From positions 1-44,056 of the forward strand of contig DATMBA010000428.1 of assembly GCA_035559635.1 (NCBI GenBank): DNA of 44,056 nt, given 5' to 3'. The stretch is from Roseiflexaceae bacterium (GTDB lineage: Bacteria > Chloroflexota > Chloroflexia > Chloroflexales > Roseiflexaceae). The position numbers and the translations under genes were made by a program. Shown one piece after another: positions 12,899 through 27,948 of this stretch (position 1 is its first letter; every line of letters begins with the position of its first letter). The notes below the pieces were generated by a model. It did not search any database and had not been told where the DNA came from. It worked only from the letters and a program-made list of their open reading frames with translations.

Positions 12899-13144
12899 TT
12901 GGCCAAGACCGTGATCCTGCATATTGCGGGCGAGGACCCGGTGCTGGCGGACCTGGAGCAGGACCCGCAGCCGAGCGACATGTTCATCCGGGTGACGAAC
13001 ATGCGCAAGCGAGACGGCAAGGATGTGCCGTACCTGGCGCCTGGGGTGCAGAGCGTGATCTTCCCCTGGCACCGCATCACCTTCCTCGAGATTATGCCGA
13101 GCGTCGAGGAGCGCGACTCGGTGATCGACTTCTTCAGATCCTAG
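12899..13144 (+). CDS. Small conserved hypothetical protein (81 aa)
   Basis: TTG 12899 lies 6 nt after AAGGAG. The non-repetitive, balanced sequence AKTVILHIAGEDPVLADLEQDP...VIFPWHRITFLEI contrasts with the Arg-rich upstream part of listed ORF 12410..13144. Confidence 0.6.
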   Translation: MAKTVILHIAGEDPVLADLEQDPQPSDMFIRVTNMRKRDGKDVPYLAPGVQSVIFPWHRITFLEIMPSVEERDSVIDFFRS

Positions 13145-13147
13145 AGC

Positions 13148-13483
13148 CAATACGTTTCAAGTGCGCGGGTAGCGCCCGCGAACCCCTTCCCGGAGGGGGT
13201 GTGGAGGGCGAAGCCCTCCACACCCCCCGTATTTGACAGGAGTTACGCGGTCGCCCGCGAATCGGGGGCGCGGGGCGCAGCCCTCCCCGCAACATCCCTT
13301 CCCTCTACTTGTCAAACTAGGTTTGACGGACTACTAAAGCCAATACGTTTCAAATACGCGGGCGCTGCCCGCAGCGTGGGGGTGCGGGGGCCATAGGCCC
13401 CCGCGAACCCTCCCCCACACCCCCACCGGGGGAGGATGTGGAGGGCTTCGCCCTCCACATCCTCCCGTATTTGAAACGTATTG
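13148..13483. mobile_element. MITE-like non-autonomous element (tandem/composite, two copies) with 10-bp target-site duplication
   Basis: ATCCTAGAGC occurs at 13138-13147 and again at 13484-13493. The termini are CAATACGTTTCAA(G/A)T(G/A)CG at 13148 and the inverted CGTATTTGAAACGTATTG at 13466-13483. An internal second left end lies at 13340. Copy 2 (13340-13483) has near-perfect 18-19 bp TIRs. No ORF. Confidence 0.75.
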
Positions 13484-13486
13484 ATC

Positions 13487-15337
13487 CTAGAGCACGCCAC
13501 CACCAGGAGGCACAGCGGCGCGAGGACAGATGCGTTGACAGGAGGTGACAGCGTCGCTACAATGCACGCCGAGAGCGGATGTGGCCCGGTGGCCGTCCTC
13601 GTCTTCAAAACGAGTGGGCGGGGTGACGAGCCTCGCCGGTGGGTTCGACTCCCACGCGCTCTCGGACCCTACAAATTCACGAAATAGCAGATTTGCCGCG
13701 TCAGGAAGCCATACTTCGAGCGTGTACTGACGCGGTGCCTGCTTGGTGACCTCGATTCGCCTCACCATCAGCCGTAGCGCTCGCTGGAGCGCGGCGCGCA
13801 CGGCTGGCTCTCGCCACCGTTTCGGGTCCACATCCGCCTGCTGAAAAATCCGACTGACGTTGCGCGCCTGTGCGTCCAGCGTCTGGAGACCGGCGCGCAG
13901 CGTCTCCTGCTGGGTTTTCACCTCCGCAAGGCTCTGGACCACGGCCTCCGTGCGCTCCATCATCGCCTGACGGAGCAGCGGGGTGAGCGTCTTGTTACGG
14001 ACGAGTGTATCAAGCAGCTCGTCGCGCTGCTTCATCGCCTCGGCGACCTGCTCGTCGAGCGTGGTGAGCGCCCGCGTCAGCTCGCTGCGTCGGCGCTCCA
14101 CTGCCTCGTTCACCGCCCGGATCAGCGCCCGCGGCGCAACCCGCGATGTCTCGGCGAAGAGCACCTCCAGCACCGTCTGCTCCAGCTTGTCCGCGCTGAG
14201 GATCGTGAGCGTACACGAGCCGGGACGCGACGAGCGGCCGTTGCAGCGATACTTGCGATACTTGTAGCAGCGCTCCCCCTTGTACCGGCTCGTTGTATAG
14301 CCCGGCATCGTGCGTCCGCAGTGGCCACAATGCACGAGATGGGCGAGCAGGTACTCGTTGTGCGAACGCGGCTCGGATGGGCCTGTCCGCTCAGCTAGCT
14401 CCGCCGCTTGCACGCGCTGGAGCAGCTCCCCATCCACCAAAGGCCGGCCAGTGTCGACGATCACGGGGTGCTTGGGGTTGCCGTCCTCGTCTTCGTCGAA
14501 GCGGTTGGCCGTGTGGCCCCATTGTAAGATGCCGGCGTACACGCCGTCAACTGCCGCCTCACAGATCTCGCGGATCGTGTGCCGTTTCCAGGTGGTGTCG
14601 GGGATGCGCCGCTCGAGACGGATGATCTCCCCCGTCTCGGGGTCCTGGCGCTCCAGGTAGGGCTTGCGCAGGTACAGCCGCATACCGGGTGTAATGGGGA
14701 CGGCCGGCTCTTTCCCGTCGAGCGAGATGCCTGCGTTGAGGAGACGCGCGATGCGGTGGTGGCCCAGCCCTTCGGCGCGCCGCTCGAGAATCCAGCAGAG
14801 TGCGGCGTAGGTGTCGGGGTCCGACACGAACCAGCCGTCGCCGTCAGGAAGGAGGCCGTAGGGGATCGTGCCACCGCGCCACTTGCCCTTCTTGGCGCGG
14901 TACAGCTGGCGTTTGTAGGTGCGCTGGCTCGTCTCATCACTCTCGAGTTCAGCGACCACGCCACGCATATTGCGGTTAAACTTGCGGTACTGCGGTGCCT
15001 GCTTCTCCGGCTCGCCACTGTAGAGAATCTGGATCCCAAGCGTGCGGAGCTCATCCTCGAACTGCCGGCGCTCGGTATCATTGCGGTGGCCCCGGTCGAC
15101 ACTCTCAACACGCACGCGGTTGAACTTGCGCTGACGGGCGTCGCTGAGCAGCCGCTGGTATTCTCGCCGCTTCGCAGCACTGGTACCGCTTCGAGCCTGG
15201 TCGATGTACTCGCCGACGATTGTCTCGCTCGCCCTGCGCGCGTCATTCCGCAGACGGGCAAGCTGATCAGGGATACTGAAGCCGTGCTTGACCTGGTCCA
15301 CGCTGGAGCATCGCAGGTAGAGGGCTGTGCGAATCAT
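13487..15337 (-). CDS. Large serine recombinase (integrase)
   Basis: Resolvase-type N-terminus ALYLRCSSVDQ (catalytic Ser), a recombinase domain, a zinc ribbon CGHCG...YRCNG, and a long coiled-coil. The last ~58 codons (13490-13664) are antisense to tRNA-Sec (SESAWESNP = antisense T-arm). They are probably junction read-through rather than conserved protein. Confidence 0.9.
   Translation of the reverse strand: MIRTALYLRCSSVDQVKHGFSIPDQLARLRNDARRASETIVGEYIDQARSGTSAAKRREYQRLLSDARQRKFNRVRVESVDRGHRNDTERRQFEDELRTLGIQILYSGEPEKQAPQYRKFNRNMRGVVAELESDETSQRTYKRQLYRAKKGKWRGGTIPYGLLPDGDGWFVSDPDTYAALCWILERRAEGLGHHRIARLLNAGISLDGKEPAVPITPGMRLYLRKPYLERQDPETGEIIRLERRIPDTTWKRHTIREICEAAVDGVYAGILQWGHTANRFDEDEDGNPKHPVIVDTGRPLVDGELLQRVQAAELAERTGPSEPRSHNEYLLAHLVHCGHCGRTMPGYTTSRYKGERCYKYRKYRCNGRSSRPGSCTLTILSADKLEQTVLEVLFAETSRVAPRALIRAVNEAVERRRSELTRALTTLDEQVAEAMKQRDELLDTLVRNKTLTPLLRQAMMERTEAVVQSLAEVKTQQETLRAGLQTLDAQARNVSRIFQQADVDPKRWREPAVRAALQRALRLMVRRIEVTKQAPRQYTLEVWLPDAANLLFREFVGSESAWESNPPARLVTPPTRFEDEDGHRATSALGVHCSDAVTSCQRICPRAAVPPGGGVL
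13535..13563 (+). promoter_or_regulatory. Sigma70-type promoter of tRNA-Sec
   Basis: TTGACA (13535-13540), a 17-nt spacer, then TACAAT (13558-13563). The tRNA 5' end lies 7-8 nt downstream. Confidence 0.8.
13571..13664 (+). tRNA. selC: tRNA-Sec (anticodon UCA)
   Basis: Folded by hand. Acceptor GAGAGCG/CGCTCTC, with a possible 8th pair. 6-bp D-stem GTGGCC/GGCCGT with 4-nt loop CGGT, as in E. coli selC. Anticodon stem CTCGT/ACGAG with loop CTTCAAA (anticodon TCA). Long variable arm GGCGGGG-TGACGAG-CCTCGCC. T-arm GTGGG-TTCGACT-CCCAC. Discriminator G. CCA is not encoded. Confidence 0.88.
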
Positions 15338-15675
15338 CGCTTCCTCACGGTACGAAGCCGCTCCTCGATCTGCGCGAGGCGGGTACGCAGATCATCGGCA
15401 TTCGCCTCGAGCAGCTGCCGCTCAGAAGCGAACTGATGTGCGGCCGTGTTGATATTGTGCGCGAGGTTGAGCGCGGCGTCAAGTGCGGCATTCCCGTGGA
15501 GCAGGACGAGCGAGTCGGCGTAGGCCGCAAGGTCGAGCTGCGGGGGTGCGGGTTCGCGCTGCACGATGACGGTGTAGCGCTCGCGTTTTTTCGTTCGCTT
15601 GTTCCTCACGGCGGTTCCGGGTATGGGCTGGGGAACGACGCTGTTCCTCCAGCCCCTGGAGGGCGTACGTGCCAA
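15334..15675 (-). CDS. Small hypothetical protein translationally coupled to the recombinase (candidate accessory/directionality factor)
   Basis: ATGA overlap with the recombinase start at 15337-15334. Basic N-terminus (RNKRTKKRER) and a C-terminal coiled-coil-like helix. TTG start at 15675 is uncertain. Confidence 0.55.
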   Translation of the reverse strand: MARTPSRGWRNSVVPQPIPGTAVRNKRTKKRERYTVIVQREPAPPQLDLAAYADSLVLLHGNAALDAALNLAHNINTAAHQFASERQLLEANADDLRTRLAQIEERLRTVRKR

Positions 15676-15692
15676 TCACTCAATCGTGTGTC

Positions 15693-16445
15693 TCAGTCCA
15701 GGTCGTCCCAGGAGGCGGCGAATGGATCTTCGGCGTAGGTCGCCTGGTGCAGCGACAGATACTGGTTGATCGCGGCGATGGCGAGCATCGCCTGGAAGTA
15801 GAGGGGCTGCGAGTCGTGCGTGTGGCGTTCGATGTACTGGAGCCGGCGGATGGCCGATGCGAGTAAGGGAATACGCTGCTGATCAGGTGGCGCGGCGACG
15901 AGGTCCGCTGGCCGGAGAGGATGGGACGTGATGCGGCGCTCGGCGAGCTGGCGCCCGAGTGCGACGTGGTTGTCCGCCGCGAACACGATCGCAGCCACAT
16001 CCGCGCGCGGTACGTCGAGCAGGATCAGCGTGAGCAGGAGCGAGAACTCCGAGATCGCGCCCCGGCTCTCCAGGGTTTCCGTCAGGCCGAGGTCGGTGAG
16101 CAGCGCGCGGTGCGGCGGCGGCATCAGCTGGAGCATGGCCGTCCGGAGGGGTGTGATGCCGTCGATGTAGGTCGTCAGCGCATCGACGATGTTTTGCCGC
16201 CGCAGCATCTGGTCAAGGGTGACCTCGGTGTTGACGACGAGCTCACAGAAGCTCCAGGGCGATCCCCGCAGGATGGCGAGCGCACGCATGACGGTGGTGA
16301 GATCGGTGTGTTCATCGCCGGCCTCCATACGCCCTACAGTGTTGCGCGACACTCCGATGCGGATGCCGAGTTGCTCTTGCGTGAGCTTGCGGCGCTTACG
16401 GAGTGCGTGGAGATAGGCACGTTCGCGTGTGGTCGTCGTGGTCAT
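15693..16445 (-). CDS. XRE-family HTH transcriptional regulator with ~180-aa C-terminal domain
   Basis: N-terminal LRKRRKLTQEQLGIRIGVSRNTVGRMEAG is a Cro/C1-type HTH. It is the first gene of the minus-strand operon XRE - small ORF - recombinase. Confidence 0.88.
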   Translation of the reverse strand: MTTTTTRERAYLHALRKRRKLTQEQLGIRIGVSRNTVGRMEAGDEHTDLTTVMRALAILRGSPWSFCELVVNTEVTLDQMLRRQNIVDALTTYIDGITPLRTAMLQLMPPPHRALLTDLGLTETLESRGAISEFSLLLTLILLDVPRADVAAIVFAADNHVALGRQLAERRITSHPLRPADLVAAPPDQQRIPLLASAIRRLQYIERHTHDSQPLYFQAMLAIAAINQYLSLHQATYAEDPFAASWDDLD

Positions 16446-16621
16446 TGCTGCACCTTCTCAATCGGGCGGGCAGAGCACTGGCGAGATGGACGCTCATACG
16501 AGCGTGTCCTCGCATCGCCCGCCGTCTTGAGATGCCACACATATCTTAGCGACCTGCTACGAAAAAGTCAGCAGCACGGGTGGTGCATTTGCGACGAATT
16601 TTGCTCTGTACGAGCGCCATA

Positions 16622-16641
16622 ATGCACCACATGTGGTGCAT
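16622..16641. promoter_or_regulatory. Perfect 20-bp palindrome ATGCACCACATGTGGTGCAT (operator candidate)
   Basis: Read directly. A half-site GGTGCAT recurs at about 16581-16587. It lies about 180 bp upstream of the XRE gene start. Confidence 0.5.
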
Positions 16642-16980
16642 GTCGTTTGATACGACCGATTGGTGTACAATGTGAGCACGGATTTGTACGGATCGCGGTC
16701 TGTGACTCGCCTCCAGCCGCCGCATCACATGATCCAGTCGGTAGTCCCTCTCTGCAGATACGTCGGGCATCGTAAGTTGGCGGGAGAGACAGGGCACGGT
16801 CGATCTCCACAGGAGCGTCGCTCGACGAGCGGCGCGCGGCGCTGGCGCTGCTCACGCTCATCTACCCGCCCGCGCTGCCCGTTCTGCAGGCGATGATGAG
16901 GGCCGAGCTTGTCGTGCTGCGGTACATCTTCCGGCGGTAGCGATGGACGTAGCCCTGGAGCGCCAGGGGACGCCAGTTGT

Positions 16981-17012
16981 GCCAGAGGTGGAGGGATAAC
17001 CCCACCTCTGGC
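16981..17012. other. Hairpin, 11-bp perfect stem (GCCAGAGGTGG / CCACCTCTGGC)
   Basis: 16981-16991 pairs with 17002-17012, with a 10-nt loop. It lies in the non-coding control region. Confidence 0.6.
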
Positions 17013-17067
17013 AGTCGTCCGTGGCGAGTGCAGCGGGGCAGCCGCGTCTGCGTCGTGTTTTCAGAGC

Positions 17068-17107
17068 GAATACAAAGGGGTGGCAGGATGGCTACTCCTT
17101 TGTATTC
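17068..17107. other. Hairpin, 11-bp perfect stem (GAATACAAAGG / CCTTTGTATTC)
   Basis: 17068-17078 pairs with 17097-17107, with an 18-nt loop. It lies in the non-coding control region. Confidence 0.6.
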
Positions 17108-17222
17108 TGTGGCAATCAGGAGCGCGCTGCTGACAGGCGCGCAGAATACTCCCTATCTGGAAGCATAGTGCCCCACATAGTGACGGAGCGTAACATTGGA
17201 TGGATAGTCGTATCCAGCGGAT

Positions 17223-17362
17223 GTTACTCATCGTAACCATCGGTGGATCATTGTATCCTCTGAAAGTTACGCACCGTAACGTGCAGAGGATCATCGAGTG
17301 GCGTTCAAAACATATGTGCTTGACGCTGGCCGGTTATCTGGTATACTGTTACGCACCGTAAC
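17223..17362. promoter_or_regulatory. Three GTTAC-N5-GTAAC operator-like palindromes
   Basis: GTTACTCATCGTAAC at 17223-17237. GTTACGCACCGTAAC at 17266-17280 and, identical, at 17348-17362. The last abuts the -10 box of the promoter below. Confidence 0.65.
17320..17347 (+). promoter_or_regulatory. Sigma70-type promoter for the antirepressor-like operon
   Basis: TTGACG (17320-17325), a 16-nt spacer, then TATACT (17342-17347). An operator lies immediately downstream. RBS AAGGGGG lies 7 nt before ATG 17383. Confidence 0.65.
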
Positions 17363-17382
17363 ATTTCGAAAGGGGGTTGCGC

Positions 17383-18273
17383 ATGACGGACGACACGCAG
17401 ACGCCGCAGGAAATCGCGCAGGCTGCGACGCTCCAGACCGTCATCTTTGACAACGATACTCTGGTGGCGGCCGTTCTGGCCGGAGAGGGTGTCGCGGTGC
17501 CGCTGCTGATGATGTGTCAGCCGCTCGGCCTGGACACCTCCAATCAGGCTGACCGGCTTCGCGAGCACGCGGTGCTCTCGCGCGGGCTGCGCTACGTGCG
17601 CGTGCCGGTGAGAGGCCGGCTGCGATCTGTGCTGGCGATCCTCCACGACTACATCCCGCTGTGGCTGGCTACCATCACCCCGGCGAACGTGCGCGAGGAG
17701 GTGCGCGACAAGCTCATCCGCTACCAGGAGGAAATCAAGGATGTCCTGGCTGCGCTCTATGCGCCGCCCACGTCGGCGGTGCAGGAGCCGGAGAGCATTG
17801 TTGCGATGCGCGCCACGCTGGCGCGGGTGGTCAAGGAACTGCAGGCAATCCGCGAGCAGGCGATGGCGCAGCACGAGGAGGCGATCGAGCGCATCGACGC
17901 GCAGGATGTGCGAATCGCCGCGTTCGAGCAGGTGGTAGACGCGCGACTCGTAGACATCGCTCGTGACTTAGCGCAGCAGCAGGAGGTGATAGCTGATCAG
18001 AAGGCACTGATCGACGAGTATCTGCCGCTCGCCCCCGCGCAGCAGCAATACATCAAAGGCACGCTCCAGGCAATCGGGAAACGTCATGAGCGCGACCGTG
18101 GCGCGGACATCTACGGCAAACTCTTCGGCGAGCTCTGCTGGAAGTACAACGTGCCCCGCTACGATGCTATTCGCGCGCGAGACTATGAGGCGATCCTGAC
18201 CTGGCTGGCGGAGAAGGCCGCGGAATACGGTTACCCGGAGCTGGTGCAGACACAACAGCAGCGATTCTTATGA
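17383..18273 (+). CDS. Phage antirepressor-like protein (P22 AR N-terminal-like + ORF6C-like C-terminal region)
   Basis: The N-terminus VIFDNDTLVAAVLAGEGVAVPLLMMCQPLGLDTSNQADRL matches the antirepressor N-domain pattern. A central coiled-coil follows. The C-terminus is QQYIKGTLQAIGKRHE...IYGKLFGELCWKYNVPRYDAIRARDYEAILTWL. The functional call is from memory of domain patterns only. Confidence 0.6.
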   Translation: MTDDTQTPQEIAQAATLQTVIFDNDTLVAAVLAGEGVAVPLLMMCQPLGLDTSNQADRLREHAVLSRGLRYVRVPVRGRLRSVLAILHDYIPLWLATITPANVREEVRDKLIRYQEEIKDVLAALYAPPTSAVQEPESIVAMRATLARVVKELQAIREQAMAQHEEAIERIDAQDVRIAAFEQVVDARLVDIARDLAQQQEVIADQKALIDEYLPLAPAQQQYIKGTLQAIGKRHERDRGADIYGKLFGELCWKYNVPRYDAIRARDYEAILTWLAEKAAEYGYPELVQTQQQRFL

Positions 18274-18635
18274 AGCAGCAGTCGAATGTCGACGAGATAG
18301 TTGGCCAGCGCCTGCGGGAGCTGCGGCTTCGGCAGAACATCACGCAGGACGAGCTCGCGCGCATGCTCGGGACTTCACGCACCACCATCACTCACTACGA
18401 GGCCGGTCGGCGCCCGATGACTGTCAGCACCATCGTTGCAATCGCAGCAGCTCTCAAGGTGCCGCCCGCAGCGCTGCTTGGCGCGCTGGCGGGTCCAGGA
18501 GGCTCTGATGACATGGCGCTGCTCTCGGAGCCGGCACTCGCCCTTGCGCGCATCCTCTCCGATCACCCGAGGCTGGTACCAAGTGTGGTCGATCTGGTGG
18601 AGACGATCCTCGCACAGCAGACAACGAAGCCATGA
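18270..18635 (+). CDS. XRE-family HTH transcriptional regulator
   Basis: ATGA overlap with the upstream gene. LRELRLRQNITQDELARMLGTSRTTITHYEAGRR is a Cro/C1 HTH. Confidence 0.88.
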   Translation: MKQQSNVDEIVGQRLRELRLRQNITQDELARMLGTSRTTITHYEAGRRPMTVSTIVAIAAALKVPPAALLGALAGPGGSDDMALLSEPALALARILSDHPRLVPSVVDLVETILAQQTTKP

Positions 18636-19192
18636 CAGCTGAACGGGCTCCATCGCTCGCCACCCGTCGCGGCCCGCTGCCGCTCCCGGCCTATGTGCCC
18701 GCCGTGCGCCTCTCGCAGCGGCTCGACCGCCTCATCCGACCATACCTACCGCACATCGCGCACGCGGCGTGCTTGGGCATCTCGGGCGCGCGCGATCTGG
18801 CGCGTGGCGATGGCATCCCGCCGATGATCACCATGATTGCCCCAGGTGCGCTCGATGTCGGGGCGCGGCTGGAGCGCGGGGACGGCTACCACCGCGATCC
18901 GCTGTTGGCGCTCGCGGACGGCGAGCGCGTGCGCTGGCTCGACCTGGTGGACCTCCTCGAGCGCTACGCCGATGTTGGCGTTACCCCGACTGCGCCAATC
19001 CCGCCAAATTCCGGCGGGATTCCCGATTTCGTGGATCTGGTGGTCGAGCTGGCCTGCGTCACGGCCGACAACGTCCGGCGGCGCGACCTACCGCTCCTGG
19101 CCGCACAGTGCCATGCCTCGGTGTCGAGGCTGCCAGCGCGGCGCTCGCGCGGCTCACGCGCTCGTCGTTCGCTGGCTTCTGCCTGGACCTGA
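18632..19192 (+). CDS. Hypothetical protein (possibly the 5' part of a frameshifted ~308-aa gene)
   Basis: ATGA overlap at 18632. The sequence is protein-like up to about 19120 and then becomes Arg/Ser-rich. See finding. Confidence 0.5.
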   Translation: MTAERAPSLATRRGPLPLPAYVPAVRLSQRLDRLIRPYLPHIAHAACLGISGARDLARGDGIPPMITMIAPGALDVGARLERGDGYHRDPLLALADGERVRWLDLVDLLERYADVGVTPTAPIPPNSGGIPDFVDLVVELACVTADNVRRRDLPLLAAQCHASVSRLPARRSRGSRARRSLASAWT

Positions 19193-19557
19193 CGCCGCTC
19201 GCCGCCCATGAGGCCGCGCAGCGGGAGGTGGTCGCCCGGGCCCGCGCGACGGCGGGTGAGCGCGTGGTCGCCGCGCTGGGGCTGGAGCCATCGCCGGCGA
19301 CGCGGGACGCGCTCTACGCGGGGGGCCTGGATCTGATCATCGCCCGCGCCCCGCTCGCGCTGGCGGCCGAGGGGCGCGGCTGGGCTGACCCGACGTTCGT
19401 GCTGCCGGGCGGGCGTGAGGCGTCGGAGCCGGATCGGCTCCAGCTCGGGATCGTGAACCTGGCCGGCGCGACCGGGCGCGCCCTGCCGCTGTCAGCACAG
19501 GGTCGCACCTGGGAGGTGCTCGGGCGAGTGAGGAGAAGCCGGCGCAGCGCCCGATGA
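19108..19557 (+). CDS. Hypothetical protein (GTG 19108 start, or the 3' part of a frameshifted gene)
   Basis: This is the protein-like C-terminal part of listed ORF 18769..19557 (AASAALARLTRSSFAGFCLDLTPLAAHE...). The upstream part of that ORF is Arg/Gly-rich shadow. Confidence 0.45.
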   Translation: MPCLGVEAASAALARLTRSSFAGFCLDLTPLAAHEAAQREVVARARATAGERVVAALGLEPSPATRDALYAGGLDLIIARAPLALAAEGRGWADPTFVLPGGREASEPDRLQLGIVNLAGATGRALPLSAQGRTWEVLGRVRRSRRSAR

Positions 19558-19742
19558 AGGATGGCTCGCGCTCGCCCCGGTTCGCGCTGTGGACGGAGTT
19601 GGAGCAATTACACGAGCGCCTGGGCATGCCTCCACCGACGGCGACTTTGACGATTGAGGATTTGCAGGCCGAGGTCGAGCGCCTGTGCCGGGTTGTGGGC
19701 GGGGCGTCTGGCTCAGCCGCCGGTGAGGGAGGTGCTCCATGA
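19554..19742 (+). CDS. Small hypothetical protein (62 aa)
   Basis: ATGA overlaps at both ends (19554 and 19739) suggest translational coupling. No domain recognised. Confidence 0.5.
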   Translation: MKDGSRSPRFALWTELEQLHERLGMPPPTATLTIEDLQAEVERLCRVVGGASGSAAGEGGAP

Positions 19743-20254
19743 GCGAGCGACCGCCAGACCGCCCGCCTGATTCGGTGCTATACAGTGTTGAGCATCCACG
19801 AATAAACACTTTGGAGGACATGATGGCGATCTATCACCACGACAAAGTAGAAATGGCGCGAATCGCGGTGGGCACGTGCGATGTCTGCGGCCGGCGTGTG
19901 TGGGACGTGCGCTTTATCGGCGGGCCATGCAATGCGGAGCTGCCTGGGTACAGCTACGATCGTGACATGGGCCACTGCTCCGGCACGTACCGGGGGATCA
20001 ACGTCGGTGTGCTGATCGAGATGAACCCGAGGTCGACGACCGTCTTATTCCTGGTTCACATTATGTTGCTTCAGCACCGGGGCTCGACGCCCGAGCTGCG
20101 AGCGCGGGCCGAGGCGACCGTCCGCGAGTTCTCCCTTGCCGATGCGGTGCAGTTGCTCACACACATCTACATGGAGGTCATTCCGGTGAATGCGCAGGAG
20201 ATGGACGCCGCACGTGGCCTGCTTCGGCAGTCCGGATATACGATCGTCGAGTGA
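19739..20254 (+). CDS. Hypothetical protein (171 aa, Cys-containing N-terminal half)
   Basis: Coupled start. Visibly lower GC than its neighbours. CDVCGRR...GPCN...HCSG is a possible metal-binding cluster. No family recognised. Confidence 0.6.
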   Translation: MSERPPDRPPDSVLYSVEHPRINTLEDMMAIYHHDKVEMARIAVGTCDVCGRRVWDVRFIGGPCNAELPGYSYDRDMGHCSGTYRGINVGVLIEMNPRSTTVLFLVHIMLLQHRGSTPELRARAEATVREFSLADAVQLLTHIYMEVIPVNAQEMDAARGLLRQSGYTIVE

Positions 20255-20270
20255 CGGATGTGGAGCGTGA

Positions 20271-20309
20271 GGAGCGCGGGGCTGCTACCCGGTAGCAGCC
20301 CCGCGCTCC
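20271..20309. terminator. Bidirectional terminator hairpin
   Basis: GGAGCGCGGGGCTGCTACC (20271-20289) pairs with GGTAGCAGCCCCGCGCTCC (20291-20309), a 19-bp perfect stem. It lies between convergent genes ending at 20254(+) and 20323(-). Confidence 0.8.
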
Positions 20310-20322
20310 TTGTTGCGATGTC

Positions 20323-20694
20323 CTATCCTTGTTCGGCGAGGTTCCGCCGCGGCCGCCCTCGCGCGCGACGGTTCCGTCTTGCCTCCTCCGCCTTGGCGAG
20401 CCGCTGCTCACGCTCGGCGCGCGCTGCCCGGCGGGATGGGGCCAGATCGGCGTCAGGGACCTCGACGATCTCAAGCAGCCCATCCGGGCCACATAGCGGG
20501 CACGCCAGGTAGTCCGGTATCACCACCAGCGCCAACTCGGGGAACTCGGCGATGGTATTGCTATCGAGCGCCAGGACGGTCGAGTATGGGAGGCCCATCT
20601 CCTGTGCCGCGAGGCGGGGTGAGAGGTCCCGCCCCTCGCGTGCGGCCTTCTGCGCCAGCCGTTGGCTGAAATGAGACAGAAGCGTTGGAGGCAT
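20323..20694 (-). CDS. Putative HTH DNA-binding protein with basic AT-hook-like tail
   Basis: ATG 20694 is an internal start of ORF 20323..20760. LSPRLAAQEMGLPYSTVLALDSN is HTH-like. CPLCG motif. C-terminal RRNRRARGRPRRN. Confidence 0.6.
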   Translation of the reverse strand: MPPTLLSHFSQRLAQKAAREGRDLSPRLAAQEMGLPYSTVLALDSNTIAEFPELALVVIPDYLACPLCGPDGLLEIVEVPDADLAPSRRAARAEREQRLAKAEEARRNRRARGRPRRNLAEQG

Positions 20695-20785
20695 CGCGTA
20701 ACCTCGGATGGCCTGCAAGGAACCTGATGCCAGTGTAGCACGGATGGCGAAAAAATACAATAATCTTAAACATGTTATTTAAAGA

Positions 20786-20815
20786 TTGGCAGATTTATGG
20801 GGGATGGTGTATACT
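20786..20815 (+). promoter_or_regulatory. Sigma70-type promoter in AT-rich divergent intergenic region
   Basis: TTGGCA (20786-20791), an 18-nt spacer, then TATACT (20810-20815). It lies upstream of the CAP-domain gene. Confidence 0.5.
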
Positions 20816-20902
20816 CATCCGTGCGACGCTGCTCCAGCAGCGAAGCCCCGACAACGAAGCCTGCCCGGTTCCACCGGGTCGTCATAGCCAAAGGAACCTC
20901 CC

Positions 20903-21595
20903 ATGATCGCCTTCCGCCTCCCCCGCGCCCTCTGGGCCTCCGCTTGCCTCGGTGTGACCATCGCCGCCGTCCTGCTGCTGTCCCTCGCCACGCGCGCCCA
21001 GGCGGACGAGTCCGTGCCGCTGGCTGAGCCCTGGAAGGCTTCCGAGGTCGTGTCCGACACGGCTGCTCTGACGGATACAGCGCTGCTTGCCATCGTCCCG
21101 ACCGGGGACATCCAGCCCGTTTCCTACCTGCCCCTGGTGGCGAGGGACGGTGAGGCGACTGTCGAGCCTCCGACCGCTCCAGCTCCCTGCTCGCCGGACA
21201 ACCGCGCCTTCGAGGAGGAGATGCTGGTCCTCGTGAACATCGAGCGGGCGAAGGTCGGCGTAGCTCCGCTGCGTGAGAACGCCAGCCTGACCTGTGCGGC
21301 GCGCTGGTTTGCGAAGGATATGGCAACACACGACCTCCTTAGCCACGTCGGCTCAGATGGTTCGCAGTTCTGGGATCGGATGTTCCGAGAAGGATACACG
21401 GGTATCGATCGGGGTGAGGTTGCGGCTGTTGCGCGCCACACGCCTGCTGAAGTGGTGGCCGACTGGATGGCGAGTGCGCCGCATCGCGGAATCTTGCTCG
21501 ACCCGATCGCGAACGAGGCCGGACTCGGCTACGGCTACAGCGCCACGAGCCTGTACCACACAGGCTGGGTGATCGATACCGGCAAGGGCCACTAG
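20903..21595 (+). CDS. Secreted CAP/SCP (YkwD-like) domain protein
   Basis: Signal peptide MIAFRLPRALWASACLGVTIAAVLLLSLATRAQA. CAP-like core MLVLVNIERAKVGVAPL...AARWFAKDMATHDLLSHVGSDG...VVADWMASAPHRGILLDP. Confidence 0.85.
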   Translation: MIAFRLPRALWASACLGVTIAAVLLLSLATRAQADESVPLAEPWKASEVVSDTAALTDTALLAIVPTGDIQPVSYLPLVARDGEATVEPPTAPAPCSPDNRAFEEEMLVLVNIERAKVGVAPLRENASLTCAARWFAKDMATHDLLSHVGSDGSQFWDRMFREGYTGIDRGEVAAVARHTPAEVVADWMASAPHRGILLDPIANEAGLGYGYSATSLYHTGWVIDTGKGH

Positions 21596-21596
21596 T

Positions 21597-21633
21597 GGAC
21601 TTGCTCACATGACAGGGTCATGTGAGCAAGTCC
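21597..21633. terminator. Terminator hairpin (17-bp perfect stem)
   Basis: GGACTTGCTCACATGAC - AGG - GTCATGTGAGCAAGTCC, 2 nt after the CAP gene stop. Confidence 0.75.
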
Positions 21634-21654
21634 AGTCAGTAGCGGTACTTACCA

Positions 21655-21699
21655 CAGCAATCAACCCTGGCGGGAACTTTCCGCCAGGGTTGATTGCTG
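21655..21699. terminator. Second hairpin (19-bp perfect stem)
   Basis: CAGCAATCAACCCTGGCGG - GAACTTT - CCGCCAGGGTTGATTGCTG. Confidence 0.65.
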
Positions 21700-21866
21700 A
21701 ATCGCGCCTCAGTGCGTGAACACGGGAAGTTTTCCACACTCCTTTTTCCCATCCGGCGCTGGTACTGCGGGTGCGTGCGGTTCGGGCTAGACGATGCATT
21801 GAGGCCATCACTATCACGCGCTATACTTCGGGTGTAGCCCGACAAGGCACATCAAAACGTTAGTCT

Positions 21867-23116
21867 GGTTAGGGCTATCGCATCTTCAATTCCTGATAAC
21901 TGTGGTACAATCGCATGTTGTGTATCAGTGATTGGGAGGATGCGATGGAAACCCGGTTCGATATTTCCACGTCCACTATCGTCGAGCATTTTGGCGCCCT
22001 TGAAGATCCACGCATCGAGCGAACCAAACTCCACGTATTAATCGACATCGTCACGATAACCATTTGTGCCGTGATTTGTGGGGCTGATGGCCCGGTTGAT
22101 ATCGAACAGTATGGCAAGGAAAAGTACGACTGGCTCAAGACCTTCCTCACGCTCCCGAACGGCATTCCATCACATGATACCATTGGTCGTGTCCTGGCGC
22201 GTCTTGACCCAAAGCAGTTTCAAGCGTGCTTTCTTCGCTGGATGCAGGCGATATGTCACCTCACGGACGGGGAAGTTGTACCGATTGACGGAAAGACGTT
22301 ACGCCATTCGTATGATACGGCGCTCGACCAATCGGCGATTCATATGGTCAGTGCTTGGGCCGCCACCAATCGCATGGTGCTTGGACAATTGAAAGTGGCA
22401 GAGAAGTCGAACGAGATCACGGCCATTCCCGAATTGATTGATGCGCTCGACATCGCCGGTTGTATTGTGACCATTGATGCACTCGGCTGTCAAAAAGAGA
22501 TTGCTGACCGAATTATTGCAAAGGACGCCGATTACCGATTATATCCTGGCGTTGAAGGGTAATCACGAACACCTCTACGATGATGTCCAACGGCTGTTCG
22601 ATGTGCTGCTTCAGCAAGATTCGACGACATCGCCACTGGATTCTTACGAAACACTCGATGAACAGCATGGTCGAACCGAAGTGCGGCGCTATTGGACAAC
22701 CTCGACACTCGACACATTACGGACCAAAGATCAGTGGCGCGGGTTACGAAGCGTGGGCATGATCGAGTCAGAACGCAGTGTGAACGGCGAAACCACGACA
22801 GAGCGGCGCTATTATCTGTTGATTGGACCCAATAATGCGCAAGCGTTTGTGACATCCGTTCGGTTACACTGGGGCATCGAGAATGCCGTTCATTGGGTGC
22901 TTGACGTCGCATTTCGTGAGGATATGAGTCGCATTCGGGTTGACCATGGACCAGAGAATTTTGCCTTGGTTCGACATATTGCACTCAATTTATTACGCCA
23001 AGAAACATCGTTCAAGGGCAGTATCAAAACAAAACGTCTCAAAGCGGGTTGGAGCAATACCTACTTCGCCAAGATACTCTGTGGAGCCATGTGATGATGC
23101 GATAGCCCTATTAACC
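21867..23116 (+). mobile_element. ISAs1-family insertion sequence (decayed copy)
   Basis: The inverted ends are GGTTAGGGCTATCGCATC (21867-21884) and GATGCGATAGCCCTATTAACC (23096-23116). It has one transposase frame and visibly lower GC than its surroundings. I could not identify a clean target duplication. Confidence 0.75.
21945..23094 (+). pseudogene. ISAs1-family (H-repeat-associated) DDE transposase, frameshifted
   Basis: ATG 21945 lies after GGAGGA. The N-terminal part has FGALEDPRIERTKLH...ICAVICGADG. The C-terminal part, in the +1 frame, has RLHWGIENAVHWVLDVAFRED. The frame breaks at 22530-22543, where GATTACC/GATTATA is a 7-nt tandem duplication. Deleting one copy restores AKDADYILALKGNHE. 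Confidence 0.85.
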
Positions 23117-23646
23117 ATTGTTGCTAGTTCGTTGAGCTTGCATCGGCAGTCAATAAGGCATATAGGTTGACTTCTGAGCGAAAGAGCGGCCAACCCATAG
23201 GCGACCACGCATGCTCACGACCGCTAGCGTGTAGCTGTACTTGATGCGTGACATCACGTGACGGCGTTTCTCGCACCTTCGCCCCGATTCACGTTCATGA
23301 GCCGCTTCATGAACTAGCAACACTGGTTATTAGTCTGGTTGGGAACCATGTCGCTCAACCAACGCAGGGCCGCGACGCCTCAAACAGCGGAAGGGTCAGT
23401 CGACTTCATCTGATGGCGCTTTTTGGCGCTCGATGCGGTCGCTCTGCTTCAGGAGGATCAAGAACACCTCGCGCCGCAGTTGGCGCCAACACCGAGCGAC
23501 GGCCGCACGGCCTGAGCCTGCAAACCACATACCCCTGCAGCGGGGGGTAAACAGCGTCTGCTCACAGGGCGCCTGCGCGCCAGTGGTGGTGAGGAGCATG
23601 TCCTCACCGCACGGGCGCGCTTTTCTATGTCGGCACTGGAGGAACC

Positions 23647-24321
23647 ATGCACTTTCTCCTCACCTATCTCCGGTTCCATAGCGACAAAGTCCGGCTCTTC
23701 GGCCTGGCGGTGGTGCTCGTTCTGCTCGTCGCCCTGCTCGTGATGCTGCGCCCCGCCGCGGGCGGCCTCACGCCGCTTGGCGACGTGGGCGCGCCGCCCG
23801 CGGCCTCGGGCAACGCCACCGCCCCGTACGCCGCCGTCGCCCCTCCCGCGGTGCGTCCTGGGATGTACGACCTGCAAGCCGACCCTCGCAGCCGCGATGC
23901 AGCTGCGGCGGCTGCCCAGCCGGACCCGGAGCACCAGGACGCCGTGCTGGACGCACTCAACTGCGCGCGCGCCAGACAGAACCTGGCCGCGCTGCCACTG
24001 GACTCCGACCTCTCAGCGAGAGCCGCTGACCTTGGGCGCCTGCTGGCCGCTCACCCCGACACGTCCCTGGCCGAGTTGGCGGCTGCTGAACACTATGCGC
24101 TCGTTGTGGTGACCCCGCTCAGCTTCGCGGGCGCCGCCGATGAAGCGGATCCGGCCGTCCAGCAGCCGGCTGCCCCGAGTGGCCCCTGCGCCGTGGGCGG
24201 CTTCGACACCGCCCAGCTCGATCTTGCTGATGCCACTGCCGCGTTCGGCATCGCCGTCTTCCCCGACCCGCAGGGAGCGGAGGAGTGGGACGTCATGTCG
24301 GCAGTCATTCTCGCCAGGTAG
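23647..24321 (+). CDS. Membrane-anchored hypothetical protein (weak CAP/SCP-like motif)
   Basis: ATG 23647 lies after GGAGGA. TM segment LFGLAVVLVLLVALLVML. VLDALNCARARQNLAALPLDSDLSARA resembles the first CAP helix. First gene of the long plus-strand array. Confidence 0.65.
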   Translation: MHFLLTYLRFHSDKVRLFGLAVVLVLLVALLVMLRPAAGGLTPLGDVGAPPAASGNATAPYAAVAPPAVRPGMYDLQADPRSRDAAAAAAQPDPEHQDAVLDALNCARARQNLAALPLDSDLSARAADLGRLLAAHPDTSLAELAAAEHYALVVVTPLSFAGAADEADPAVQQPAAPSGPCAVGGFDTAQLDLADATAAFGIAVFPDPQGAEEWDVMSAVILAR

Positions 24322-24330
24322 CGCCACTCT

Positions 24331-26730
24331 ATGGGAGATGCCACGATGCAACGAACCGCTCATCCATCCCGCGCGGCGTTCTTCCTCCTCCTGCTGGCGT
24401 TGCTCGCCGGTGGGCTTTCCGCGCTTGCGCCACAACCACGGATCGTCGCAGCCGCCCCGCCGAGCGGCTGGGTGAAGGCTGACCGCGTGCGCGGTGGCTG
24501 CGACTCCGCCGGGCGCTGCAACAGTGACGTTACGCCGGGCAGCCCGACCCTCTACGAGTACCGTCCCGACCGGCAGGGCGTCGGCCGCGACTACAACGTC
24601 ACCAACACCCAGCTCGCCTATCACGGCGGACTGCCCACATTTGAGCACCGCGAGCGCTGCAACATCAATGGACGGGACCAGTACTGGTCCGCCGGTTCCT
24701 GGCACCACGGCGGCTACTGGACGCTGACCTACACCGCGAGCGGCGGTGAGCGCTGGATCGGCCCCTCGCGCGAGCACTGGGCGTTCTACCACAGCGATAG
24801 CTGCGATTCCGATCCCGCCGTTGATCGGACGGCAACGGCCATTGCGCGCGTTCCGACATCCACGCCGCCCGGCGGGGAGCTGACGCCGACAACCTGGCGC
24901 CAAGATGGAACAACGACGCCGACTTCTCCTCCTGTCATTCCAGGGACACGAACGCCAGCTCCTACCCTCACCCCGTTTCCCACCGCGACGGAAGTTCCCC
25001 CCTGCTTCGCGGAGCAGGCGCTGCCCACCGGCATGGGGATCGACGCCGTGCAGGGGAGCACCACGGTCAACTACCGCTCGCCGGTGGGCTACTACGTCTA
25101 CCCATCGTACTATCCCGACCAGCCTCCGGGCCTCTACGACGACGACGAGCCGCCGCCCTGGCCGCAGGACCGGGCGATGGCCCCCATCGCGGCAGGCCAG
25201 CCGCTTACCGTGCGCTACCACCTCAGCTCGGTGAGCATGAACAATCCGAAGGAAAACCCGCTGGAGCCCTTCACCCAGTGGGGCGCGGCCAAGATGTTCA
25301 TGTGGATCAAGGACCTGGGCGTCGACCTCGCCAGCAGCGCTGATGACCGCTACCTGTTCAACCTCGGCAGCGACGCGATCGGCCGTGAGGATGTCGAGAG
25401 CGGCAACACGATTGTCCAGGTGCAGCGCTGGGAGCTGGCGGACGGCGTCGAGGTGCTTGGGCCGCAGGAGTTCAGCAACTTCGATTGGGGCGCCGGCCAG
25501 TGGTGGGAGAAGTTGCACTCGCACGACCCGGGCCGCGGTGACTACGCGCCTGCCGACGACCAGCACTGGCCTGGGACGACGCCCATCCTGAACGGGAGCA
25601 TCCAGCGCGTCTACGTGCGTCATCCTGACACGATGGGTTTCCGCTTCGTGCCCGAGCCCGGCCACAGCTACGAGGTGATGTCGCGGGTCAATAAGAGCTC
25701 GTGCAGCTACTGGCAGTCGAACTACCGCCTGATGCGCCTCACCACGGTTGAGCCGATCGACATCGGCATCTCGATGAGTGTCCCGCGCATCACAACGCCC
25801 GGCTCCGCCATCACCTACCGGCTCACCTACGAGAACACGACCACTGAGCCCGGTAAGCCGTTCACGCTGACACACACGCTGCCGGACGGCGTGACGTTCC
25901 AGGATTCCAGCCGCCAGCCTACCCATCAGCGCGGGAACACGCTCACCTGGGACCTTCCCGCGCTGTATGGTCGCGACGATCCGCAGGGGCGCGTGTGGCG
26001 TGGCGAGATCATCGTCACCGCCACAGTTGTGCAGGGCGCGCCGGAGACGTTGCTGACCGTCGCCACCGTGGCGATGCCTGACGACAGCAACCCAACCAAC
26101 AACCGGGCCGAGGGTTCCACGCGCGTGGTGTACCTCCCGGCGCCGCAGGCGACGTTCCGCCTTCGCATCCATTCGGACCTCGACCCGCAGCACGGCATCT
26201 ATACCTCGAGCGGGACAGCGGTCAAGTGGCCGGCGAACGAGGTGATGGACTTCATGCCCGCCATCACGCTCGGGACACCCGCACAGCCCGCCGACGGCGC
26301 CTACCGGGTCACACACCGCATCGTTGCCTGGTCGCTCACGCAGGTGGGCAACACCCCCATCCGCGCCCCAGCGTGTAAGGCCGGCGCCGCGCCTTCCGGG
26401 TCCGACACGGCCGGCGCTGAGTTAGGCGGTCTGGAAGGATGCCACTACCGCTACATCTCCAACCCGACGGTAGCGGATATGCGTGGCATGGCGCACTCGT
26501 ACTGGTCCGAGACGCTGCCCGGCTCGATGCGGAGCGACGTGTATGTGTGGACGCCGCTGCCGCGCGGCCCGACGCAGTTGGTGCTCGCCTACGCTGTGCT
26601 GACGACGGCCCAGGAGAACGGGGTGGATGTGGACGGCGACGGCCGCACCAACTCGATCATTGCCCGCACCACCACCGTTACCGGCGGCGCGTTCCAGGTG
26701 ACTCTCCTCGCGCCCCGCAGCCGGCGTTGA
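24331..26730 (+). CDS. Large secreted protein with DUF11-like repeat domain (adhesin/pilus-associated candidate)
   Basis: Signal peptide AAFFLLLLALLAGGLSALA. Pro/Thr linkers. The segment ISMSVPRITTPGSAITYRLTYENTT...LPDGVTFQD...LTWDLPAL...ATVAMPDDSNPTNN follows the DUF11/CARDB-like pattern. Confidence 0.8.
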   Translation: MGDATMQRTAHPSRAAFFLLLLALLAGGLSALAPQPRIVAAAPPSGWVKADRVRGGCDSAGRCNSDVTPGSPTLYEYRPDRQGVGRDYNVTNTQLAYHGGLPTFEHRERCNINGRDQYWSAGSWHHGGYWTLTYTASGGERWIGPSREHWAFYHSDSCDSDPAVDRTATAIARVPTSTPPGGELTPTTWRQDGTTTPTSPPVIPGTRTPAPTLTPFPTATEVPPCFAEQALPTGMGIDAVQGSTTVNYRSPVGYYVYPSYYPDQPPGLYDDDEPPPWPQDRAMAPIAAGQPLTVRYHLSSVSMNNPKENPLEPFTQWGAAKMFMWIKDLGVDLASSADDRYLFNLGSDAIGREDVESGNTIVQVQRWELADGVEVLGPQEFSNFDWGAGQWWEKLHSHDPGRGDYAPADDQHWPGTTPILNGSIQRVYVRHPDTMGFRFVPEPGHSYEVMSRVNKSSCSYWQSNYRLMRLTTVEPIDIGISMSVPRITTPGSAITYRLTYENTTTEPGKPFTLTHTLPDGVTFQDSSRQPTHQRGNTLTWDLPALYGRDDPQGRVWRGEIIVTATVVQGAPETLLTVATVAMPDDSNPTNNRAEGSTRVVYLPAPQATFRLRIHSDLDPQHGIYTSSGTAVKWPANEVMDFMPAITLGTPAQPADGAYRVTHRIVAWSLTQVGNTPIRAPACKAGAAPSGSDTAGAELGGLEGCHYRYISNPTVADMRGMAHSYWSETLPGSMRSDVYVWTPLPRGPTQLVLAYAVLTTAQENGVDVDGDGRTNSIIARTTTVTGGAFQVTLLAPRSRR

Positions 26731-26806
26731 CCGGAACGACGGCGGCCGGGTTGCCCCCGGCCGCCGCCACACGAAGGACGACGTGTTCGAGGAAGGACAA
26801 GAGCCG

Positions 26807-27382
26807 ATGGTCTCACGTCTTCGCCACCACCGCGCCGCACCCGGACAGGCGCTTGTCGAGATGGCACTGACCTTCATGATCCTGATTGTGCTGATCTTCG
26901 GCGGCATCAGCGCGATGCAGATCCTGTCGGTGCAGTACACCGTCAATCAGGCGGTCCGCACCGCCGCTCACGAGGCGGCCCTGATGGGCTCGACCGGCGG
27001 CATGAAGCGCGGCCACGTCTACCTGCTCAGCGAGGCGCCCGGCCCGGTTGCCGAGGCCGCGCGCAACGTGCTCACGGGTGGCATCTTCACCACCGATCTG
27101 ACCAAGGCGACGATCACGGCCGGCTGCGACGCCGACCCTTGCCGGCGCTACAGCCCGATCACCGTGCAGCTGCGCTACGAGGACCAGACGATCGCTCCCA
27201 TTCCCGCCGTGCTCGAGCGCGTGGTTGCGGAGCGGGCCGCGACGCGCGCCTCCGAGAAGGACCAGCAAGCCGAAACGCTGAACGCTGAACGCTCAGGAAG
27301 GATCGTATGCGTGTGCCAACCAGACAAAGCTGTACGAACGACAAGCGCTCCGCACGGGAGATGGAGCAGTTGGACAGGATGA
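26807..27382 (+). CDS. TadE-like pilus assembly protein / pseudopilin
   Basis: ATG 26807 lies after GGAAGGA. The N-terminal motif GQALVEMALTFMILIVLIFGGISAMQI is a TadE signature. Its 3' end runs through a heptamer array. Confidence 0.8.
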   Translation: MVSRLRHHRAAPGQALVEMALTFMILIVLIFGGISAMQILSVQYTVNQAVRTAAHEAALMGSTGGMKRGHVYLLSEAPGPVAEAARNVLTGGIFTTDLTKATITAGCDADPCRRYSPITVQLRYEDQTIAPIPAVLERVVAERAATRASEKDQQAETLNAERSGRIVCVCQPDKAVRTTSAPHGRWSSWTG

Positions 27383-27440
27383 GCCTTCGGCGTTCAGCCT
27401 TTGACGTTCAGCGTTTAGCGTTCAGCCTTCAGCGTTCTGA
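27274..27440. repeat. Inverted heptamer arrays spanning the TadE-like gene junction
   Basis: AACGCTG AACGCTG AACGCTC at 27274-27294. The inverse CGTTCAG-type array lies at 27391-27440. They are about 95 nt apart. Confidence 0.75.
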
Positions 27441-27948
27441 CGGCCAGTCGCTCGTTATCCTGGCGCTCGTGTTGCCGTTCCTGGTCGCGCTGATCATGAT
27501 GGCGATCGAGGTCAGCACCCGGCTCCTGGAGGTCGCCGAGCTCGAGGATGCGCTGCGCCAGGCCTCCCGCTCCTCGGTGCAGCTGCTCGACTACGCGGCG
27601 CTCGCGGACAACGGGCAGCGTGTGGACGAGGAGCGTGTGATCGCCACCGCCAGAACGATGTTCCGCGTCAACCTGGGCAGCGTCCGTGGCCTGGATGAGC
27701 CGGTGGATGATCTGGTGGACCGTGTGTCGTGGCAGGTGCTCCCCGAAGGGGGCGCCTGCACGCTCCCTGGTGAGGGCGCGCTGGTCGCCGGACGGGCGCA
27801 GCGTGCGAACAACCAGTGGCAGGTGGAGTTCGATACACCCGCCGTCTGCGCCTCCGTTCGCCCGAAGCTCCACGGTCTGCTTGGCTGGGGCCAGTACATG
27901 CCGACGATCAACGCGGCCGAGACGCTCGATGTGCTGGTGGAGCCATGA
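27379..27948 (+). CDS. TadE/TadG-like pilus assembly protein
   Basis: ATGA overlap at 27379-27382. DGQSLVILALVLPFLVALIMMAIEV is a TadE/G-like N-terminal motif. An alternative ATG lies at 27361. Confidence 0.75.
   Translation: MSLRRSAFDVQRLAFSLQRSDGQSLVILALVLPFLVALIMMAIEVSTRLLEVAELEDALRQASRSSVQLLDYAALADNGQRVDEERVIATARTMFRVNLGSVRGLDEPVDDLVDRVSWQVLPEGGACTLPGEGALVAGRAQRANNQWQVEFDTPAVCASVRPKLHGLLGWGQYMPTINAAETLDVLVEP

Follow-up and report, generated by a model that had tools for sequence, protein, structure and literature searches.

Comparison with described systems

In Enterobacteria, the tRNA-Sec gene (selC) is an integration hot spot, and the selC-associated islands encode P4-like tyrosine integrases. 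Archaeal integrases of the SSV1 type, which are tyrosine recombinases with a tRNA target, have the attachment site attP within the integrase open reading frame (ORF), and integration splits the integrase gene (int) into two large parts. In phage lambda, sib is located beyond the stop codon of int; integration alters what lies 3' of int and leaves the protein unchanged. Here we set beside these arrangements a locus in a 44,056-nt stretch of DNA from a Roseiflexaceae bacterium (contig DATMBA010000428.1 of assembly GCA_035559635.1, hereafter the window), in which the ORF of a large serine recombinase (LSR) extends in antisense over an intact tRNA-Sec gene and its promoter.

The locus differs from the selC islands in recombinase class and int orientation, the tRNA not being read through there. 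It differs from the SSV1 type in that the exchange would be limited to a non-folded tail past residue 559, and from lambda sib in that the coding sequence itself would change. With sib it shares a change in the 3' context of int upon integration, which might, speculatively, affect the fate of int mRNA.

A gene containing attP is also the basis of integration-dependent immunity in mycobacteriophages (BPs, Brujita and Charlie) and in prophage clusters of M. abscessus, where a protein has one C-terminus in its viral form and another in its prophage form; the gene concerned is the repressor gene of phages with a tyrosine integrase, integration truncates the protein and thereby removes an ssrA-like tag, and in some of these phages the bacterial site attB overlaps the 3' end of a tRNA gene, so that the protein gains a few residues from the host (PMC3694055, PMC8092301). 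This parallel had been drawn in an earlier reading of the window made from the letters alone (the sequence-only reading); it holds as far as attP lies within a gene but is otherwise loose, because a repressor gene of tyrosine-integrase phages is involved there (PMC3694055, PMC8092301). In the window, the core of the attachment site lies in int, with the XRE-type regulator gene 2 kb away, the enzyme has serine recombinase domains, and integration would lengthen int by reading through the whole tRNA gene.

With the LSRs of SPbeta (SprA/YokA), A118, TP901-1, phiC31 and Bxb1, the window enzyme shares a resolvase-type catalytic domain, a putative recombinase domain and a zinc ribbon with an inserted coiled coil. 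Like the LSRs of phages and other elements, it is associated with putative attachment (att) sites next to int that are short and imperfectly palindromic and have a very short common core. It differs from them in two respects: i) the predicted target is a tRNA gene, tRNA-Sec, instead of a protein-coding gene, and ii) the P arm and core lie within the int ORF, so the C-terminus would change upon integration. In the literature searched, we found no account of an LSR that targets tRNA-Sec or of one whose attP lies inside its own ORF. The int-att arrangement thus appears to be a variation on known kinds (attP within a gene, LSR integration), documented here at the level of sequence.

The interpretation that we favour, with a probability of about 0.7, is that LSR elements with the att site inside int occupy tRNA-Sec throughout the Chloroflexales, and that integration swaps an unstructured tail of the enzyme as a by-product of this arrangement and not as a functional module. 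The process would involve the following: i) the LSR of the integrative element would target the 3' end of tRNA-Sec; ii) the int coding sequence includes the P arm, made up of TCGTGA and the next 12 nt, as well as a core of 7 bp, and has no stop before the core; iii) recombination within the core would regenerate tRNA-Sec; iv) integration would replace the codons that come after the core in the free or tandem form (18–23 codons from the P' arm in relatives) by the antisense of tRNA-Sec, its promoter and DNA further upstream, giving 56 replacement codons after the core in the window; and v) the folded enzyme (residues 1 to ~551) would be common to the integrated and non-integrated forms, which would differ in an unstructured tail at the C-terminus. 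Since the integrated form must excise and the non-integrated form must integrate, both forms should be active if the element is mobile.

The integrase gene and tRNA-Sec

On the minus strand, the LSR ORF meets its first in-frame stop only at 13487 (Table 1). The sequence-only reading had noted that the frame stays open to this point, antisense to the whole of tRNA-Sec and its promoter, and the ORF list, ARAGORN and Rfam bear this out: the tail of the ORF runs in antisense over tRNA-Sec, both promoter hexamers (-10 and -35) and another ~45 nt of upstream DNA. A contig assembled in Logan from a public run is identical to positions 13615–27800, with zero differences. Because this contig covers the int-tRNA junction, the junction is not an artefact of one assembly, the sample being possibly the same one.

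Residues 5–153 of the LSR match PF00239 (Resolvase, E 1.9e-19) and residues 330–393 match PF13408 (Zn_ribbon_recom, E 1.3e-11), while PF07508 (Recombinase domain) scores 18.2 bits, under its cutoff of 21.1. The family profile aligns to the SPbeta integrase (9dxh) over query positions 240–524, where the predicted model is confident, and it also matches the TP901-1 catalytic domain (3bvp), with which the R9/S11 motif, near-invariant across the family, aligns. Four cysteines (C337, C340, C365 and C375) are invariant across the family, and the predicted model contains two long helices (382–447 and 453–499). The protein therefore has an N-terminal resolvase-type catalytic domain with the serine nucleophile, as well as a zinc ribbon with an inserted coiled coil (PF13408, the four cysteines and the two helices), and by its domain content it is an LSR, with predicted catalytic activity.

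AlphaFold was run on the family alignment (A1), shared tails included. In the resulting model, the last elements are two strands (527–534 and 537–543) and a short helix (547–551); from residue 553 onward there is no secondary structure and the predicted local distance difference test score (pLDDT) is 27–34, staying below 50 throughout 553–616. The match of the family profile to the solved SPbeta integrase stops at query position 524–526. The predicted fold of the LSR stops near residue 551.

The tRNA-Sec gene scores 71 bits against Rfam RF01852, for which the gathering score is 47. Its promoter, which is convergent with int, ends seven bases upstream of the tRNA gene; only 0.3 sites of its quality (11/12) are expected in shuffled sequences. 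No terminator-like site was found between int and the convergent tRNA-Sec. In the antisense of tRNA-Sec, two of the three frames are open in 41 of the 41 copies compared, and the third is closed only by a TGA opposite the anticodon. Because two antisense frames are open by default, read-through of tRNA-Sec by an ORF needs no selection.

Just upstream of the tRNA promoter are palindromic repeats (13138–13493) that are highly multicopy in the matching metagenome, with a summed contig depth of 180–610 vs ~16–20 for the island. The stop of the LSR ORF at 13487 falls on the edge of this repeat.

A junction shared by relatives

A search of the protein collection gave ~70 LSR homologues with 50–86% identity, all from Chloroflexota sources, whereas viral contigs contained only one relative, with 37% identity and without tRNA-Sec. 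In most of the homologues, the body of the protein is followed by the same ~30 residues (ESAWESNPP...HRATSAL) and then only by the traces 'DCS' and 'CQ'. The ~30 residues are the antisense of tRNA-Sec, with ESAWESNPP corresponding to the acceptor/T-arm, as had been read from the sequence alone for SESAWESNPP; 'DCS' and 'CQ' come from the two promoter hexamers (-10 and -35) read in antisense, which accounts for this residual likeness among the tails. A conserved protein motif was considered for the ~30 residues and rejected, since conservation of the tRNA accounts for their likeness. The same tail in unrelated contexts had been named as a finding that would speak against a host origin; the ~30 shared residues are all at tRNA-Sec.

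The loci of the relatives were taken from genome contigs plus metagenome contigs, the metagenome locus L057 being the contig of homologue P0024. ARAGORN placed tRNA-Sec directly antisense at the 3' end of the LSR gene in 15 of the 27 genome loci; most of the remaining loci are truncated by the end of their contig. The family is carried by Kouleothrix, Chloroploca, Roseiflexus, Chloroflexus and Oscillochloridaceae, as well as related metagenome-assembled genomes. TCGTGA-N12-CGAGAGC was present at the LSR 3' end in 36 loci. When the strict pattern TCGTGA-N12-CGAGAGC followed by antisense tRNA-Sec was applied to the Chloroflexales loci of both sources, 26 junctions were found, including that of the window. 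In two genomes of the same genus (G001 and G002), the left flank is syntenic up to tRNA-Sec, at which point the contigs break off, with different LSR P arms starting there.

At ~65–70% GC, long spurious ORFs occur often, and the extension could in principle be a gene-calling artefact of a GC-rich genome, or the adjacency a coincidence, with the recombinase ending before the tRNA. This is very improbable, because the frame stays free of stops from the conserved body down to 13487, and the same junction recurs base for base in 26 loci of different genera.

Two further observations concern relatives. In locus L006 (G030), a tyrosine-integrase-like ORF lies downstream of tRNA-Sec, and the same tRNA is therefore used by elements of both recombinase classes. 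In metagenome loci L081 and L082 (~840–900), what comes after the P arm and core is neither tRNA-Sec nor a P' arm; the ORF continues there for 133 codons.

Attachment site and predicted crossover

The 7-bp core corresponds to the last seven bases of tRNA-Sec, six from the end of the acceptor stem and the discriminator base. In some relatives the P arm and core are part of an attP-like site of the form P-core-P' (TCGTGA, 12 nt, CGAGAGC, 16 nt, TCACGA), located at 11659 in L031, 1179 in L074, 10171 in L057 and 11432 in L071, with sites of the same kind in L063 and L069. The core is identical across the 26 tRNA-Sec junctions and the P-core-P' sites. L041, the integrated sibling of L031, agrees with it through the P arm and core, and the two part right after CGAGAGC; in L031, L074 and L057 the divergence begins immediately past the core, and the match to the tRNA reaches 13 bp in L071 and L063. 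We infer from these comparisons that the P-core-P' forms represent attP.

The P-core-P' site is an imperfect palindrome in which the inverted TCGTGA motifs are 35 nt apart and centred on the sixth base of the core; with this odd spacing, either AG or GC could be the crossover dinucleotide. Serine integrases exchange strands at the central dinucleotide of short, roughly symmetric sites (PMC3783163), and applying this rule to the symmetry of P-core-P' places the crossover in the last three bases of the core. By this comparison, the crossover in the window is predicted to lie in codon Ser560 (13658–13660), from which it follows that residues 1–559 would be element-encoded and residues 561–616 host-encoded. 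A tail of ~62 host codons had been proposed in the sequence-only reading; its host origin stands, but its size is reduced to 56 residues plus the crossover codon. The last bases of tRNA-Sec in the window would then have been supplied by the core copy of the element, the tRNA being kept intact.

The C-terminal tails

Four relatives in P' context (L031, L074, L057 and L071) have ORFs that end 18–23 codons past the core, with tails unrelated to the tRNA-derived one although they follow the same P arm and core. In integrated relatives, the ORF stops 30 to 131 codons past the core, at the first chance stop upstream of the tRNA. These data support the view that the C-terminus of the family LSR depends on the sequence across the core, and agree with the proposal of the sequence-only reading that the integrated and non-integrated forms would differ at this end.

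The tRNA is entered in two reading frames in different subfamilies, giving either ...SAWESNPP... or ...GSRTHRR...LVLKT.... Diversity at the three codon positions was compared between 31 tail codons (20 distinct sequences) and the 84 body codons just upstream. The values for positions 1/2/3 were 0.119/0.087/0.043 in the tail and 0.325/0.254/0.477 in the body, the latter being a coding signature. That third positions are the least variable in the tail reflects the constraint on the tRNA and not on the protein, whereas the body evolves as protein. Given the two frames, the lengths of 30–131 codons, the low third-position diversity and the predicted disorder, the tail is without sign of selection at the protein level, and we infer that the tRNA-derived tail is a tolerated by-product of the compact int-att arrangement, not a functional module.

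Possible sensor function, possible decay and state of the window's copy

Several findings weigh against this interpretation and are considered together here. All 36 loci that carry the strict motif of P arm plus core lack a stop before the core, a pattern that holds across 50–86% protein identity and could mean that the read-through arrangement itself is selected. The P'-context tails are similar in length, with 23 aa in each of three types. One of these (L057, P0004) ends in -AA, which gives it an ssrA-like look (cf. PMC8092301); the other tails (L031, L074 and L071) do not have this end. Such features would be expected if the tail swap were a built-in integration sensor, in which either the tRNA-derived tail or the loss of the P'-encoded one altered the stability or directionality of Int, or if int mRNA were silenced or cleaved only in the integrated state. 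Either would be the equivalent, for a serine integrase, of sib retroregulation in lambda or of integration-dependent immunity. In the RNA version, the 3' part of int mRNA, complementary to the whole of tRNA-Sec, would face a strong convergent promoter; the 11/12 consensus match of this promoter and the lack of a terminator-like site between the two genes are consistent with this, and attP within a gene with a C-terminal degradation tag has a precedent (PMC3694055, PMC8092301). Nevertheless, we consider a sensor unlikely, since the tail shows no coding constraint, is read in two frames at lengths from 30 to 131 codons and is disordered by prediction, and since a P' arm conserved as DNA can account for the likeness of the P' tails.

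Other adverse findings concern the excised state. The P-core-P' sites of L057 and L071 are junctions within tandem arrays and need not be excised circles; the sequence of a tandem-array junction is the same as that of an attP. The contig of L031 (C58) does not overlap itself at its ends and thus gives no sign of circularity. For the window's own copy, no attR-type site (TCGTGA, 15–17 nt, GCTCTCG) was found in the 15.4–30 kb region, the GCTCTC sites that are present have no P' arm, and neither the repeat search nor the core-plus-arm searches of the window gave anything usable. The attR pattern had a single match in the whole genome of the organism, equal to the control count, and the right-flank DNA of the window is not conserved in relatives. 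Because attR was not found, the attP-form ORF of this copy cannot be rebuilt. Likewise, the contigs of one DNA run contained no empty site, no circle junction and no credible flanked joint at the core.

These results raise the question of whether the window's copy is a decayed, immobile remnant, in which the long ORF is a fossil and no excised form exists. Besides the missing attR and the lack of empty-site or circle contigs in the matching run, this would fit the frameshifted insertion sequence within the island, the small size of the island, its lack of structural or transfer genes, and the P-arm scar without an LSR gene in a relative. The scar is probable in locus L003 (G015, a complete 11.3-Mb chromosome), where a P-arm-like motif, CAAATTCACGA, follows tRNA-Sec, the LSR gene is absent and a LuxR-type gene lies beyond; this motif is probably what is left of a lost element. 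The copy may thus be immobile despite its intact int ORF, but we regard this as rather doubtful: the 616-aa ORF is intact and retains the family-invariant residues, a candidate promoter lies upstream of int, and a regulator/anti-repressor module is present. Decay would in any case concern this copy only and not the mechanism of the family, and it is compatible with the tail swap as a by-product of integration.

Tandem att-like sites in relatives

In L057:10100-20177 (Ga0272446_1003282), three att-like sites (10171, ~14350 and 18266) occur ~4 kb apart downstream of the LSR gene. The modules between them have no integrase; their cargo includes DUF4241, an IS3 transposase and a PIN protein. The core-side end of each module (~200 nt) shares 78–79% identity with the DNA right after tRNA-Sec in L005, and the likeness extends partly to L012 and L008. 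The arrangement in L057 resembles a series of cargo modules without int, arrayed at tRNA-Sec. L005, L008 and L012 had been candidates for an empty attB and were dropped, as their post-tRNA stretches (~215, 147 and 46 nt) recur as the module ends of L057.

L071 is a second tandem case, in which an LSR gene of the subfamily that uses the other frame has two core-plus-P' sites (L071:11432 and L071:20821) downstream of it, separated by 9.4 kb. In L063:2785-3990, the LSR ORF stops four codons past a 13-bp core in a P-core-P' site; tRNA-Sec is found ~1.1 kb beyond this site. The intervening DNA shares 86% identity with the sequence that follows the L071 site, and int and the tRNA may thus be separated by a short module.

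A bolder proposal would combine these observations with the position of the core: the core inside int, together with the convergent promoter of consensus strength, would be a selected integration sensor, in which the altered tail of Int and an int mRNA ending in the complete antisense of tRNA-Sec would let the integration state switch the level or directionality of Int, and the same enzymes may build the arrays of ~4-kb int-less modules of L057, as a serine-recombinase cassette system at tRNA-Sec. We consider this combination quite improbable.

Implications

Serine integrases are prized in genome engineering for their short att sites and because they need no host factors. The 3' end of tRNA-Sec, the 7-bp core and the clearly palindromic putative attP make up a defined class of sites, with many natural examples of attP and attL. 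An integrase coding sequence that is rewritten by its own reaction would amount to a natural tolerance experiment, in which the C-terminus past the last zinc-ribbon strands appears to accept 18 to 131 unrelated residues, a property useful for fusions. For annotation, the 'conserved C-terminal motif' (SAWESNPP...) of database homologues does not represent a protein domain but is the shadow of a tRNA gene. Integration-dependent switches would extend from tyrosine-integrase phages to serine integrases if a regulatory role were shown for the tail swap or for the convergent transcription of the tRNA.

Features of the window and gene content of the island

The features of the locus are listed in Table 1. 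The variable island next to tRNA-Sec is recognized by its lower GC content (0.51–0.66) from 13 to 24 kb and by the break in synteny with same-genus genomes, which returns at ~26838.

Table 1. Coordinates of the integrase gene, attachment site, tRNA-Sec and island features in the window
Feature	Position	Strand	Evidence or remark
LSR ORF, integrated state, 616 aa	13487..15337	-	Stop codon 13487-13489
Predicted element-encoded part of the ORF, residues 1-559	13661..15337	-	AlphaFold and codon-position diversity
Predicted host-encoded tail of the ORF, residues 561-616 (56 codons past the core)	13490..13657	-	Disordered by prediction, no coding signature
Putative P arm inside the last int codons	13665..13682	-	On the + strand, TCACGA at 13677-13682 and 12-nt spacer at 13665-13676
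7-bp common core	13658..13664	.	GCTCTCG on the + strand, CGAGAGC in int orientation
tRNA-Sec (selC), intact	13571..13664	+	ARAGORN; Rfam RF01852 at 13571-13663
tRNA-Sec promoter TTGACA-17-TACAAT, convergent with int	13535..13563	+	Consensus match at 11/12 positions
113-aa ORF abutting the int start codon, no family match	15334..15675	-	No Pfam or PHROG match
XRE-type helix-turn-helix regulator	15693..16445	-	HTH_31, HTH_3; PHROG transcriptional repressor/regulator families
Anti-repressor (Ant, P22_AR_N), divergent from the regulator	17377..18273	+	PF10547, E 5.9e-20; phrog_524, E 3.4e-28
Variable island adjoining tRNA-Sec	13665..26837	.	Lower GC, synteny break
Insertion sequence, DDE_Tnp_1 / DDE_Tnp_1_assoc transposase, 19-bp inverted ends	21870..23110	+	Inverted repeat I24, Pfam

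By its position, the 113-aa ORF is a candidate regulator or directionality factor. The island also encodes a CAP-domain protein. Between the low-GC part of the island and the return of synteny (23647–26730) lie a 224-aa ORF without a family match and a gene for a 799-aa DUF11 protein, the DNA of both being not conserved in same-genus genomes; the variable region at tRNA-Sec may be composite. The transposase of the insertion sequence is apparently frameshifted, its reading being split between frames near 22535, and the insertion may have disrupted the right part of the island. Another inverted repeat, of 30 nt, is present at 23108–23137 / 23304–23333.

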